NCBI GenBank assembly: GCA_024679065.1
Contig: JAGIQG010000023.1
Span: forward strand, 10,416,001-10,480,000
DNA length: 64,000 nt
Reading direction: 5' to 3'
Source: Sphyrna mokarran
Taxonomy: Eukaryota
The position numbers and the translations under genes are program-made. How positions within the stretch are numbered: position 1 is the first letter of the stretch; each line of letters opens with the position of its first letter. Shown here piece by piece: positions 2,865-45,319 of this stretch. The notes under the pieces are model-generated. The model worked only from the letters and a program-made list of their open reading frames with translations. It was not told the origin of the DNA and ran no database searches.

Positions 2865-3760
2865 CCTGTAAAATTGACGACATCCAGAACTTGACTGACA
2901 TTGCCCTAACTTGAATAAAGTCCCATTTACCCATCACCCCTGTGCTCACCGACTTGTACTGGCTTAAGCAGCACATCAATTTTAATATTCTCATCTTGGC
3001 TGTAAAAACCCTACATGACACTGGGGGCAATTTTATGGCACTGTCCAAGTCAGACAAAAACCCCAATATGACGGCTAACTCCCACGAGAGGGCCACAATG
3101 GAAGTCACCCACTCTACCATCCCTCCCAACCTTCCCACTCCACCCCAATGGCAGCAACATAATCAGGTTCATGCTCTGTGTGGGCGTGAATCTAATTAAC
3201 AGGATTTTAAATAGATTTTAATATTCCAAAGCAGCTGAACACTGTTGCTTCTGGATTACCCAGGTTCCCCCTCCCTTACACCCAAAATGGCGTGGAATCA
3301 TGAGGGCTGCATCAGAGGCTCTGAGGTGAGTGTAGCCCCCAGGGGGTGAGGGAACTGCCTACGGCATCCTGGCAGTGCCAGTCTGGGGGGAAATACATCA
3401 GTTTTTAATCAGAACCTAGCACTTTGCCATTATTTGGTAAAATGCTGTCATTCATCTCCCCCTATCTTTGCATTCTCCTCCAACGCTCGAAGTCTGGCCT
3501 CTGGCGCATCTCTAGAATGGCTGAGCTTTTATGTGCTGAGGTTCTAAACCTTTGAATTCCCCCTGAACCTCTCTGCACATTGATCCATCTCTCCCCTCCC
3601 CTTTAAGATGCTCTTCATATCTCTCTCATTGACCAATCCTTTGATCATTTGTCCTGATGTTTCTTTATGTTGTTCAACGTCAAACATTGCTTGATAATTG
3701 CTCCTGTAAAGTGCCTTGGACTTTTAACTCTGTTCAAAATACTATCAAAAATTATATTGT
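2865..3760 (+). mobile_element. L2 LINE 3' fragment interrupted by an insertion (about 3020-3450)
   Basis: PITPVLTDLYWLKQHINFNILILAVKTLH resembles the L2 ORF2 C-terminal HITPVL..LHWL..RI.FKIL motif. L2-type tail near 3710-3760. Confidence 0.7.
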
Positions 3761-3774
3761 TGCTGGCAGTGTCT

Positions 3775-4130
3775 GACCGAGCATAGCATCACGGAGTCCT
3801 CACAAACTTTAAGTCAATGGAAATCCGGGGAAGACTCTACAATGGTCAGAGTCACGCCAAACGCAAAGGAAAATGGGCGTGATTGTTGGAGTTTAAAAAT
3901 CAGGGCATCGCTGTAGGAGTTCCTCAGGGTAGTGTCCGAGACCCAGCCATCTTCATTTCCTTCATCAATCACTTCCCTCCATCGTGAGGTCAGAAGTGGG
4001 ATGTTGATTAATGAGTCAGCACCATTCATAATTCCACAGATATTGAAGCAGTCATATAACAAGACCTGGACAATATTTGAATTTGGCTGATAAGTGAGAA
4101 ATAACATTCACACTATACTACACACTAAGT
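3775..4130 (+). mobile_element. CR1-clade LINE reverse transcriptase fragment (degenerate)
   Basis: ggagttcctcagggtagtgtc encodes the GVPQGSV RT motif; frameshifted. Confidence 0.75.
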
Positions 4131-4134
4131 AGAG

Positions 4135-4452
4135 CTCTTTGGCGGCACAATGGTTAGCACTGCTACCTCACAGCATCAGGGAACTGGATTCAATTCCCGG
4201 CTTAGGTCACTGTCTGTGTGGAGTTTACGCGTTCTCCTCATGACTCCATAGACTTCCTTTGGATACTCCGGTTTTCTCCCACAGTTCAAAGATGTGTGGG
4301 TTAAGTGGATTGGCTGTGATAAATTGCCCCTTAGTGTCAGGGAAACTAGCTAGGGTAAATGCATGGGGTGATGGTGATAGAGCCTCAGTGAAATTGTGGT
4401 TGGTGCAGATTCAATGGGTCAAATGGCCTTCTGCACTGCAGGATACAATGAT
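4135..4452 (+). mobile_element. HE1-type V-SINE (type A tail) inserted in CR1
   Basis: Consensus-like head, body and tail. Confidence 0.85.
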
Positions 4453-5764
4453 TTTACACAAGTACCAGGCAATTAACATCTCCAACAAGAAAATTTAACT
4501 ATTTTTTCCTGATAATCAACATCAACTCCATAGAACCATGGAAAGGTCACAATGTAGAAAGAGGCCATTCAGCCCATCATATCTGTGCTGGGCAAGAAAA
4601 AGGAGAAAAAGATACTTGTTGGCTTATTTAATCCCACTTTCTAACAACTAATCTAGCCTTGTGCAGGTCCAAGTACCTTTTAAATAAGTTGAGCTTTTCA
4701 ACATTAATCGCTAACTTTGCCAACTTTAAGGGCATTTAGATGATCAGTGGATAGGCATACGGATAACATTGGAATAGTTTAGCTTAGAGGGTCATTAGAT
4801 TGGTTCCACTGGTCGGTGCAACATCGAAGGCCGAAGGGCCTGTACTGTGCTGTAATGTTCTATGTTCTATGTTCTAACTTAGATTGTGAATCCCAGATGC
4901 CCAACACTCTGTGGGTGAAAAAGATTTTTGTCATATTTCCTTAATCATCTTAACTCTATGCTCTCTAGCAATCAAACCTTCCCCCATGGGAAACAAGTCT
5001 TTCCTGTCTACTCTCTCTAGATCCCTAATTTTGTTCACCAAAATTAGGTCACCCCATAGCCTGCTCTGTTCTAAGGAAAACAGCCCTACCTTAAAGGAAG
5101 CACAGTAGCACAGTGGGGATGTTTAGTAATGATTCAGCATGATTCACAATTCCACAGATACTGAAGCACTCATATAACAAGACTTGGACAATATTTGGCT
5201 TTGGCTGATAAGTGGGAAATAACATTTGCATTATAATACACACTAACTAGGGCTGTATGGCAGTACAGTGGTTAGCATTGCAGCCTCACAGCGCCAGAGA
5301 CTCTAGTTCGATTCCCAGCTTGGGTCACTGTCTGTGTAGAGTTAGTTTAGCATGGTAAATCAATCTAACCTGCACATCCTTGGATAGTGGGAGGAAACTG
5401 GAGCACCCAGAGGTAACTTAAGCAGACAAGGGGACACAGTCACCCAAGCCGGGAATCGAACCTGGGCCTTAGGCGCTATGCTAACCACTGTGCCACCGCG
5501 CTACTCCACGTCTGTTCCTGTGCTGTACTTTTCTTCTTCTTTGCTCTACGTATACGTTGAAAGTCAGGAATGTGGTGGAGTACTCTCCACTTGCCCAGAC
5601 CGCAGGTCTAACAGCACCCAAGAATTCAACGCCATCCAGGATAAAGCAACCCCCTCCTTAAGCACTTCAAACACCACCTTAGACATTCACTTCCTTCAAC
5701 CCCCACACACAGTGGTGACAGTGTGTACCAACCACAAGATCCAAAAGGAATAAAGAAGAAAAAA

Positions 5765-6190
5765 TAACTTGCATTTATATCATGCCTTTCATGAACTAAA
5801 GATACCCATGAGTGCAAATCTATTAAAGAATGATTTTTGCAAGGCAATCTCTGTTGCAATTTACAAACTGCAGCTGCCAGTTTTCACACAGTAAGAACAC
5901 ATACTCCTCAATGTGGAAATGAGACTGTTTGTATTAAGTGGTAGTGGTGACAAATATTGTCCAGGAAACCAAGAGAATTCCCCTTCCCTTCCTCAAATAA
6001 TGTTATGAGCTTCTTTACATCAACTAAGAGGTTAAACAGGGTGTCAGTTCTATCTGCCATCTGAATCACGGTGCCCCTGACCACACACACTTCCTGAGTA
6101 CTTTGCTAAAGGATGAGTGAATCATTAGATTATGTATGACTTGAATTTTATACTCAGAAGCATGAGTACAGTTTATCAACCATTTATATG
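5765..6190 (-). mobile_element. Deu-domain SINE (SacSINE1-like, L2-type tail)
   Basis: Reverse complement of a tail like aaggcatgatataaatgcaagt and a Deu-like core. Related copies at about 60-260, 12960-13270, 16010-16310, 21085-21380, 28140-28515 and 50430-50630. Confidence 0.6.
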
Positions 6191-9400: not shown

Positions 9401-9627
9401 TTTTAAAAAGTTTTTACTCCATTCTTAAAGTTACAAAGCCAAAGTGCAGAGCGGACCAGGCAAGACTTTAACCCGCGTCCTTGCTTGCTCCAAAAATCAA
9501 CTCAAATTAGACCCAATTCGTGGTCCCCACAAGAGAGACAACAAGATGTGAGCTGACAAGATAAGGCTTTACACCTGGTCTTGGGCTTAATCTGATGCTT
9601 GATCTTAGTCAAAAGCTGAGAAACGAT
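9401..9627 (-). mobile_element. U2 snRNA-headed short retro-element (SINEU-like), copy 1
   Basis: Minus strand begins ATCGTTTCTCAGCTTTTGACTAAGATCAAG (27/31 to U2 nt 1-31, U2 sequence from memory). It continues into a non-U2 body shared with the copies at 13842-14049 and 44324-44470. Confidence 0.65.
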
Positions 9628-9754: not shown

Positions 9755-10050
9755 CATGTAGCACAGTGGTTAGCACTGCTGCTTCACAGCACCAGAGCCC
9801 TGGGTTCGATTCCTGGCTTGGGTCACTGTCTGTGTGAAGTTGCACGTTCTCCCTGCGTCTGCATGGGTTTCTTCTGGATATTTCGGTTTCCTCCCACGGT
9901 GTAAAAGACACACTGGTTGGGTGTATTGTCATGCTAAATTGCCCCTCAGTGTACCCGAACAGGTGTCGGAATGAGGTGACTAAGGGAATTTCACAGTAAT
10001 TGCAGTATTAATGTAAGCCTTACTTGTAACTAATAAATAAATTTTAACTT
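9755..10050 (+). mobile_element. V-SINE with type B tail
   Basis: HE1 head plus cagtgtacccgaacagg...taatgtaagccttacttgtaactaataaataaa. Confidence 0.8.
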
Positions 10051-11300: not shown

Positions 11301-11478
11301 CATGATGTAGAGGTGCCAGCGTTGGACTGGGGTAAACACAGTAACAAGTCTCACAACACCAGGTTAAAGTCCAACAGGTTTATTTGGGTAGCAAAATCCA
11401 CTAGTTTTCAGAGCTAGTGGTGTTTGATACCAAATAAACCTGTTGAACTTTAACCTGGTGTTGTGAGACTTCTTACTC
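11301..11478. mobile_element. Fold-back (inverted) Penelope-derived element
   Basis: aagtctcacaacaccaggttaaagtccaacaggtttattt is followed by its reverse complement aaataaacctgttgaactttaacctggtgttgtgagactt. Confidence 0.75.
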
Positions 11479-13841: not shown

Positions 13842-14049
13842 TTTTTTTGAAACTTTATTCCAATCCAATCAAGTCAAATTAAATCCAATTCAGAGTCCCA
13901 ACAAGTTGAGACATTCCCGATCCAAGCTGACAAGACAGGGCTCTTACCACCTGCCTTGGGCTTGATCTACATGATCGAAGCTGATTGGAGTAGGAGTATC
14001 TCCTCCTCTAAGGCTGGAACTTATTTGCATCTTAGCCAAAAGGCTGAGA
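13842..14049 (-). mobile_element. U2 snRNA-headed short retro-element (SINEU-like), copy 2
   Basis: TCTCAGCCTTTTGGCTAAGAT (20/21 to U2 nt 7-27), shared body gatcaagcccaag...tgtcttgtcagct...gaattgg, then AATAAA and an A-rich end. Interrupts a Penelope fragment. Confidence 0.65.
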
Positions 14050-14549
14050 TGGGGGCTTGAAAAAATTGCTTCAAATGAAGGTGAAATATAACCTAATGAC
14101 TTCAACCAAGCACAGCATGTCAATATTACACTTGCTCTTAGCCTTGCTATAAATAAACTTGTTGATCTTTAAGCTGGTATTGATTTCTTTCTGTTTTACC
14201 CCAGTCCAATGCCAGCATCTCCACATCATGGCCATTGGGCCAGGTTTCCACTCATGGAGATCTATAATCTTTCTCACCGCTTTCACACTGCGTCCAAAGA
14301 CAAGAAGCTTGCGTGCGCTGAGAGTCAAACAGGCTGTGCATATCCAAATGCTGCTATAAATATGCTAATCGTCCCACACCCTTTCTGAGAGTGGTCTGGT
14401 CCATGCCAGTTGAAAGGGGAAGGGAAACTCACAAACTGTTTAGCATCAGACATGGAACAGATTTTTAGGCTCACACATTAGTGCCCAAGATGAGGTCAGA
14501 GTATTACCCCCCACCCCCTCACTGCCCCACAGTAATTCAGAAGTTTAGG

Positions 14550-22820: not shown

Positions 22821-22934
22821 GAATGAAGTGCCACTGTGCTGCCCATATGTGTTTCAGTGTCAAGATTTGCCTGACTACACCCCGGGAAGCACCTTGGAAC
22901 ATTTCACAATATTAAAAACACTAGGTTAAAGCAA

Positions 22935-23098
22935 GTAAAAACAGGGAATGCTGGAAAATCTCGACAGATCTGACAGCATCTGTGGAGAGAAAAAATAGAG
23001 CCAATTCTCTCTCTGCAGATGCTGTCAGACCTGCTGAGATTTTCCAGCATTCCCTGTTTTTGTTTCAGATTCCAGCATCTGCAGTATTTTGCTTTTAT
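22935..23098. mobile_element. Fold-back element, second family (probably Penelope-derived)
   Basis: aatgctggaaaatctc...tctgacagcatctgtggagaga paired with tctctctgcagatgctgtcaga...gagattttccagcatt. Related pieces at about 26800-27175, 42925-43180 and 50092-50200. Confidence 0.6.
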
Positions 23099-43875: not shown

Positions 43876-45319
43876 AACCGGTAAGTTATTTTGTGCATTT
43901 AGGCACAAACTATTTACAAAAGTTGTTTATAATCTGCTCATTATAAATACTTGAGGAAGGATAGCAGGATAAGAACAAAATGGCCAGCATTTTACAGCCT
44001 GCCCCACTTGATGGATCCAACTAAACTATAAAATTATGAAAGGCATAGATAGAGTTGACACAGAGTGGTAGATGTCTAGAATGTGCTGCCTGAGTTGGTG
44101 GTGAAAGCAGGTACGACAGGAGTGTTTAAGGATTTTTAGATAAGCATATGAATATGCAAGGAATAGAGGAATTTCTATAGGAGGAAACCAGAACTCAGAG
44201 GAAACCCACGTAGATATCAGGAGAACATGCAAACTTCATGTAGTCACCCAAAGCCAGAACTGAACCTGGGTCCCTGGCACTGAGGCAGTAGTGTTAACCA
44301 CTGTGCCACCATTGCCACTCTGGGATCAAGCCCAGGAAGGGGTGCAGTGACTCATCCTGTCAGTTTGGATCTTATTGGATTGAGCCCAAGATGAGATGCA
44401 AAGTCTTGTTTATCGCACAAGTGTAGGTGAGGGGGAACCATGATTTTACTTAATTTGAATTGGCTTTTCTGATTAGAAATCAAATACTGAAGGACCTCTA
44501 TCAGCTGCTTTGCTGGGGGTTTCTGAATTTGACTATGTGTGCAGATATTTCCAGGGTTTTGCAAAATATGCTGAGGAAACCAAGCAAGGGGACTTTGAGA
44601 GGGCTGAACGAGTGACAGGCTAGAAATCCTTTAAATGCTAAGATCTATCACCTGTTTTCTTGTCTATGTGAAAGCCTTTTATATATGGGTCTGTCCTGTT
44701 TTCACTGTTCTAGTGGGTCCTGTGCATCTCCAGAGTGTGTGGCCTCCTTTGAGGAGTCTTCATCCTCTTCCCGCATCACATCCAATGGGATGCTTAAAGG
44801 TTTTCTGGGAGATGGAAGACATGAATTAGAGCTGTCAAATAAAGTGTTAAATCATCAATGTGTGTGTTTTCATATTTGAGTGGCCATTGAGACCAAGTTA
44901 ACTTAAATAAGTTTTGGATGGAGTATGACTGATTGTTAATTCTGTCATTGTGTATCTGAAGACTTCCAGATCTCCAGATGATCTGACACATTGACACTCA
45001 GCTTATCGCCAGTGAGTCCTTGCCAGAATCTCAGTGTGCAGGTTGTGTGAGGGTCACGTCCAGTTTTCTGCCACTCCCTGGGATTCTGTGATAGCCTCTT
45101 CCTTTCAGGAAAATCTAAGTGATCTCTCAGTGTGAAAAATAGAATATGCGAGAACACAAAGCCATTTGTGGATCATGATGACATTGAATTAAGATGAGGG
45201 TGAGATTCAGTGATGAATGGGAAGGTGAGGAGATGTGTAGACAGAGGGGTGGGTAGGCTTGAAAAGGCAGAGTAAGGAAGGTTGGGATAAGGTGTAGATC
45301 AGGATATACTTGAATGTCA

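Follow-up and report, generated by a model that had tools for sequence, protein, structure and literature searches.

The 64,000-nucleotide stretch of the Sphyrna mokarran genome analysed here (hereafter the window) contains, on its minus strand from position 9627 down to about 9401, a member of a repeat family of about 220 nucleotides, family A, that is built almost wholly from remodelled U2 snRNA. By its structure, as the SINEU elements are described, rather than by any sequence match, family A is likely to be of the SINEU kind. Judging from sequence comparisons, it is probably a SINEU-type retroposon that a Keno-like LINE of the Tx1 type has mobilised and that was transcribed from master copies residing in U2 genes.

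The U2 head described in the first-pass annotation is borne out. With the genome's own U2 genes (the array on contig C949) as the reference, the first 30 bases of the element on the minus strand align with U2 nucleotides 1–31, from nucleotide 1 onwards, with 27 of 31 columns identical. Behind U2 1–31 follow a spacer of ~23 nt, a diverged copy of U2 from nucleotide ~31 to 155, a tail of ~23 nt and an A/T run:

9598..9627, minus strand: U2 snRNA head, nucleotides 1–31 with one base missing; 27/31 identity; head in 27/30 family copies
9575..9597, minus strand: spacer of ~23 nt, an insertion relative to U2 that repeats the motif of U2 nucleotides 23–31
9544..9593, minus strand: family hairpin formed from the spacer and U2 nucleotides ~31–64, laid out as an outer 9-bp stem, a 1x3 internal loop and an inner stem; decayed in the window copy
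9438..9574, minus strand: diverged U2 body, nucleotides ~31–155; branch-point motif lost, stem IIb kept, stem-loop IV missing
9490-9498, minus strand: Sm-site region within the diverged body; the stem-loop III region remains too
9415..9437, minus strand: short family tail, conserved in family A, with weak similarity to the Tx1 LINE at its 3' end
9401..9414, minus strand: A/T-rich terminal run, from sequence and alignment

The spacer weakly resembles the start of the Tx1 5' UTR (local alignment, p 0.015).

The sequence behind the head had been taken for a non-U2 body, a view that has to be abandoned. The Rfam U2 model gives a weak match at 9409–9627 (26.4 bits, E 0.27, below the gathering threshold) that extends beyond the head across the whole stretch, and we therefore aligned the body directly with U2. 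From nucleotide 32 to its end, the element agrees with U2 nucleotides 32–169 in 90 of 155 columns, which corresponds to z 10.4 relative to 1000 dinucleotide-shuffled sequences. A consensus built from 30 copies reaches 102 of 155 columns over the same region (z 16.7); clear likeness stops near nucleotide 155. Family copies are ~85% like their own consensus, which is only 66% like U2. The branch-point motif is found in none of 30 copies and a canonical Sm site in four of 30, while stem IIb pairs alike in U2, family A and its sister family B with different bases in each. Features of a functional U2 gene or variant are missing from the element, which has neither promoter nor stem-loop IV and an Rfam score of 26.4 as against 46 bits, and no near-identical copy occurs among the scored matches in the genome, the best of which reaches 83%. 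Nor is this a SINE of the classical Pol III type: no tRNA, 5S or 7SL match was obtained, the head is U2, and the family consensus contains internal runs of 4–5 T. An origin of the tail from the 3' end of U2 was tried and rejected (p 0.70).

The insertion at the head-body junction contributes to a fold that recurs in the sister family. Consensus sequences of the family A unit and of the two family B units (B1 and B2) are predicted to form the same 50-nt hairpin (z -4.4, -5.2 and -5.0, respectively); a hairpin of this form is not present in U2. Across 36 units, 84.8% of cells pair and seven inner-stem pairs change on both sides; because the outer stem served to select the units and a few subfamily events underlie the double changes, the count of double-change cells (58 versus 29 in shuffled data, with 0 of 500 shuffles as high and slid controls at 4–13) is to be read with that selection in mind. 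The two measures based on numbers of pairs or of pair types do not rise above the shuffled data (439 and 490 of 500). The whole-element fold of the window copy is no better than that of shuffled sequences (z -0.34).

A genome search returned 3,163 family A candidates, 40 of which were scored to give 42 matches on many contigs; apart from the window copy itself, these are 73–83% alike. In an alignment of 30 loci (the family profile has 218 nt), the copies have common 5' and 3' boundaries within unrelated flanks, the fixed 3' end being followed by an A/T-rich run, and their identity to the consensus is 81–90% (mean 85.7), corresponding to a divergence of ~15%. The head is reproducibly attached to the body, a point on which the first-pass reading had been made to depend: 27 of 30 copies that had been selected on overall similarity have it, and an exact 28-place pattern spanning head and spacer occurs 61 times (control 0). 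All 30 loci fetched with this pattern contain the body (mean identity 84.4%), 26 of them reaching position 130 and 21 the tail. This genome-wide structure supports the first of the two options originally offered, an snRNA-derived SINE family.

The high copy number that had been suspected is confirmed as well. A sample of 93 stretches of 10 kb, taken at round coordinates on large contigs and hence not strictly random (929.9 kb), contained nine A-type copies and one B copy, with no match in reversed controls, which extrapolates to about 27,000 A-type copies (Poisson range 12,000–51,000), although heads vary among those sampled; the exact subtype of the window copy would number some 3,000–6,000 by arithmetic from the 61 pattern matches. 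Co-occurrence with target-site duplications differs between two sets of copies. Such duplications were seen in 4 of 25 loci of a first family A set versus 11 of 600 mismatched pairs, but a second set gave 1 of 21 versus 1 of 420, which is no excess, and none is clear at the window copy (score 5). Flanks of 60 copies share nothing that would indicate a single common target. At five loci (L027, L029, L282, L160 and L170), copies of A or of B lie head to tail in tandem.

Contigs of three organisms hold family A elements with the same boundaries. Contigs that carry the orthologous 3' flank of the window copy (about 10% different) extend 8–20 bases into its tail, so this insertion is likely to be shared with other organisms and old. 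Family A as a whole is old and probably inactive in this genome.

The profile search of the window detected three related loci (9411–9622, 13857–14144 and 44323–44468), with no matches in reversed control DNA. The three related copies reported earlier are thus real, but they represent three structural types rather than one. Besides the family A element these are:

13857..14144, minus strand: full copy of family B, ~305 nt (B profile positions 18–304, E 1e-84; aligned with 30 B copies)
44323..44468, plus strand: headless variant with two hairpin-like units (profile E 1.2e-9 and 1.3e-5)

Family B, with 2,583 candidates in the genome, consists of U2 1–36/39, a segment of ~70 nt, a second U2 head, two hairpin units that are homologous to the hairpin region of family A, and an A tail whose A runs are purer than those of family A. 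Target-site duplications accompany 9 of 30 copies versus 36 of 870 mismatched pairs. The ~70-nt segment (14040–14110 in the window) has no Rfam match; an identity with U4 or U4atac, which it seemed to resemble, was rejected as Rfam returned no such match. The tail of family B does not significantly resemble Tx1 (p 0.79).

Other repeats surround these elements. A tRNA-SINE-like copy lies at 9758–10050, 130 nt upstream of the family A element and in the opposite direction, and a tRNA-SINE-like repeat, which we take to be V-SINE/HE1, is very dense in the window, with 47 matches in 64 kb. Two long inverted-repeat elements (11345–11470 and 22917–23076) with weak matches to miRNA families are probably MITE-like repeats.

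A candidate partner LINE was recognised beside the U2 array, where one U2 gene is cut by the 3' end of a LINE, after which U2 continues with nucleotides 43–191. This LINE has 1,830 candidates in the genome. In a near-complete copy, ORF1 contains ZCCHC3-type domains and pieces of ORF2 show the Pfam domains RVT_1 (E 3.8e-7) and zf-RVT (E 0.0017), and in ORF1 at L201:4108-4683 both ZCCHC3 RNA-binding domains score above the Pfam cut-off; four of six LINE frames, two from the endonuclease region among them, gave no Pfam match. From the order of its domains, its motifs and its target, the LINE appears to be of the Tx1 type, and it is called Keno-like for its target site and not from an RT tree. A reading frame that stays open for 1,067 codons or more adjoins a Tx1 copy at L202:3-3203.

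The LINE has U2 sequence at its 5' end in common with family A. Pieces of U2 occur at 14 of 22 Tx1 5' ends that reach the 5' UTR, compared with 4 of 3,534 random windows. Three Tx1 5' ends (L215, L226 and L229) have a U1-like head followed by U2 35–53 before the 5' UTR; the U1 motif is present in 3 of 22, and the Rfam U1 model matches one of four loci (L229, E 0.0085). Identity of the body with a Keno or Utopia terminus, the outcome that the first-pass annotation had set against its own reading, is not what was found. Family A sequence beyond profile position 63 is absent from all 25 Tx1 5'-end loci (the instance at L219 is a neighbouring sister copy) and the body is absent from Tx1 3' ends. 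Such an identity was also rejected on the grounds that the element is non-coding and that none of 60 ordinary copies is followed by U2 39–66 after its tail, which further indicates that targeting of U2 by family A is rare. The second original option, a derivative of a U2-targeting element, therefore stands for the head, the target and perhaps the tail, which are common to family A and Tx1, and fails for the body, which is no Tx1 terminus.

Likeness between the family A tail and the LINE end depends on how it is assessed (p 0.09–0.19 unanchored, 0.048 and 0.007 when anchored post hoc), and matches to the tail alone revealed no better partner LINE in 1.03 Mb. Of 30 Tx1 3' ends, five lead straight into a family B head, and a B copy is present at 7 of the 30 loci; unlike B, family A has no copy that adjoins a Tx1 tail directly upstream (0 of 30, second set). 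Only one of the 30 best Tx1 3'-end matches is followed by U2, so that the LINE is mostly dispersed and its targeting appears to be loose.

Where U2 is hit, the junction is the same for LINE and SINE. A search for five A running into U2 nucleotides 39–55 gave 11 matches (control 0), and all 11 junctions are preceded either by a Tx1 3' end (four) or by a B-type element (seven). According to excerpts of PMC4640811, Keno (Tx1 clade, APE endonuclease) and Utopia (RLE) target U2, and their 3' flanks start at U2 nucleotide 39. For family A, presence at this site rests on one strong locus, L178, where the tail is followed by U2 39–53. L178 is one of two matches to a tail-U2 pattern; the other, L179, proved not to be a family A copy. 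At L308 the tail is followed by U2 39–48, a single match that could be due to chance (~0.1 expected, by estimate).

Two further loci connect these insertions with a U2 promoter. L051 comprises the U2 promoter and 5' flank, U2 1–36, a family B element, U2 40–191 and the 3' flank, and at L177 the promoter precedes a U2 head, behind which stand a B-like start and a Tx1-like LINE fragment. The true U2 array (G000:C949:17326000-17395000, with L031-L034, L051 and L055) has four genes in an 8.3-kb unit. Its unit spacer holds a Tx1 3' fragment, and the decayed units that follow the array have been hit by a B element and a Tx1-type LINE. Elsewhere, tandem Tx1 3' fragments are separated by U2 nucleotides 39–56 (L180, L181, L183 and L190), a probable target duplication of 17–18 bp. 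Dispersed promoter-less U2 pseudogenes (L037-L042, L044 and L047) each retain ~35 nt of U2 3' flank, as would be expected had unprocessed U2 transcripts served as their templates.

In family A itself, U2 likeness fades at nucleotide 1 and nothing upstream is common to the copies; 11 of 57 copies start at U2 nucleotide 1, and no common 5' extensions were found. No U2 promoter lies upstream of family A at 60 loci (59 distinct), and two promoter searches, which returned seven and two loci, recovered no family A copy. The Pol III promoter of 7SL is internal, whereas U2 lacks an internal promoter (PMC4494074, in excerpt), so that a promoter must come from outside. A promoter-bearing type of locus was found for family B, and from its sequence we infer that family A may borrow a promoter likewise.

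We propose that the endonuclease and reverse transcriptase of Tx1 would cut U2 genes at nucleotides 38/39 and insert LINE or SINE RNA there. A copy within a U2 gene could then be transcribed from the external U2 promoter into an RNA that starts at U2 nucleotide 1. Retroposition of such RNA, mostly at unrelated sites, would scatter copies that have a U2 head but no promoter, and further heads could be gained in repeated rounds. The hairpin may have been selected in master RNAs, perhaps for binding by the reverse transcriptase or ORF1 protein or for stability, and loss of the branch-point motif would keep the master RNA out of splicing. This scheme in full, with promoter-less SINEs whose masters are placed at U2 nucleotide 39 by a Keno-like LINE, are driven by the U2 Pol II promoter and gain a head in each round, is a tentative one, to which we would grant slightly less than an even chance of being correct.

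Other histories would account for parts of these observations. Heads that start at nucleotide 1 would also be given by template switching onto mature U2 RNA, a process proposed by Kojima (PMC4494074, in excerpt). It is unlikely that a single diverged U2-like snRNA gene, with its own promoter and a cellular role, gave rise to the copies as its retropseudogenes, much as the Alu monomer was derived from 7SL. The colinearity of the body with U2 up to nucleotide ~155 and the start of copies at nucleotide 1 would fit such a gene, as would the stem IIb pairing that is kept despite base changes and the remaining Sm-site and stem-loop III regions, but the branch-point motif (0/30), the canonical Sm site (4/30) and stem-loop IV have been lost, no near-identical or promoter-bearing copy was found (best matches 83%), and the several structural variants and the two-headed sister fit a mobile lineage better.

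Derivation of family A by internal deletion from a U2-targeting Tx1, which would have left a non-autonomous element with the 5' and 3' ends of the LINE and the U2 sequence carried along, appears quite unlikely. Tx1 5' ends do have the U2 head in common with family A and, next to it, a similar stretch of ~15 nt, with a short hairpin possible (p 0.015), and the anchored likeness of the tails (p 0.007–0.048) points the same way. However, ~125 of the 220 nt are diverged U2, which is absent beyond position 63 from the 25 Tx1 5'-end loci, and beyond these two short motifs the element contains neither UTR nor coding sequence of Tx1. That the copies are just independent retrocopies of U2, or chimeras each formed once by template switching, with no family behind them, is extremely improbable. 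Ordinary U2 pseudogenes are indeed common in this genome (48 scored matches), yet the copies are ~85% like a consensus that is itself 66% like U2, and the recurrence of the same head-spacer junction exactly 61 times, with diagnostic changes in common, refutes this explanation. We thus continue to prefer a SINEU-type retroposon mobilised by a Keno-like Tx1.

If the preferred reading is correct, masters embedded in U2 genes would answer how SINEU are transcribed, for which a locus of the L051 type, a sister copy within a promoter-bearing U2 gene, provides a concrete test case. Pairs of SINEU and Keno elements would then be recurrent or ancient in jawed vertebrates rather than a crocodilian oddity. 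Old insertions common to several genomes might be of use as markers in phylogeny, and in genomes of this kind the count of U2 genes will be inflated by thousands of fragments that resemble U2.

We found no literature on U2-derived SINEs in sharks; the search covered sources other than subscription journals, Repbase Reports and Dfam, and family A may already be catalogued in Repbase or Dfam. Excerpts of PMC4640811, PMC4758252, PMC8869645, PMC5381603 and PMC6887750 mention no such elements in cartilaginous fish. SINEU were described from crocodilians, none being found outside them and their transcription being left open, in the excerpts of PMC4494074 on which all comparisons with SINEU made here are based. 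Within the literature searched, as far as these excerpts go, such elements are in print for crocodilians only; family A lies outside that group and is larger than the crocodilian families (~27,000 copies versus ~1,600 for SINEU-3 and ~7,700 for SINEU-1).

The closest counterpart of family A is SINEU-3, which likewise has a U2 head of ~32 nt, a U2-derived middle, a short unique 3' part and an A tail. SINEU-3, however, arose by an internal deletion of U2, whereas family A has an internal insertion, a body diverged by 34% and a new hairpin. Family B resembles SINEU-1 in the repeated 5' addition of U2 heads and in its partial duplications. Tandem copies and internal oligo-T runs are common to the crocodilian families and those described here, and divergence is similar (crocodilian SINEU identity 83–92%). 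The Tx1 LINEs that are partners of SINEU carry U1 or U2 heads, as does Tx1 here, and a U1 piece is likewise present in the crocodilian Tx1-Mar. The target common to SINE and LINE is U2 nucleotide 39 in this genome, where most copies are untargeted, and Mariner-N4_AMi in crocodilian SINEU. The density of the SINE-like repeat in the window (47 matches per 64 kb) also contrasts with the low SINE content of crocodilians.

Keno and Utopia, as portrayed in excerpts of PMC4640811, agree with Tx1 of this genome in the 3' junction at U2 nucleotide 39 and in tandem insertions with U2 39–56 between them; family A differs from both in being short and non-coding. Family A is comparable to the Alu monomers FAM and FLAM (PMC4494074, in excerpt) in that it derives almost entirely from a single small RNA that was remodelled and whose fold was selected.
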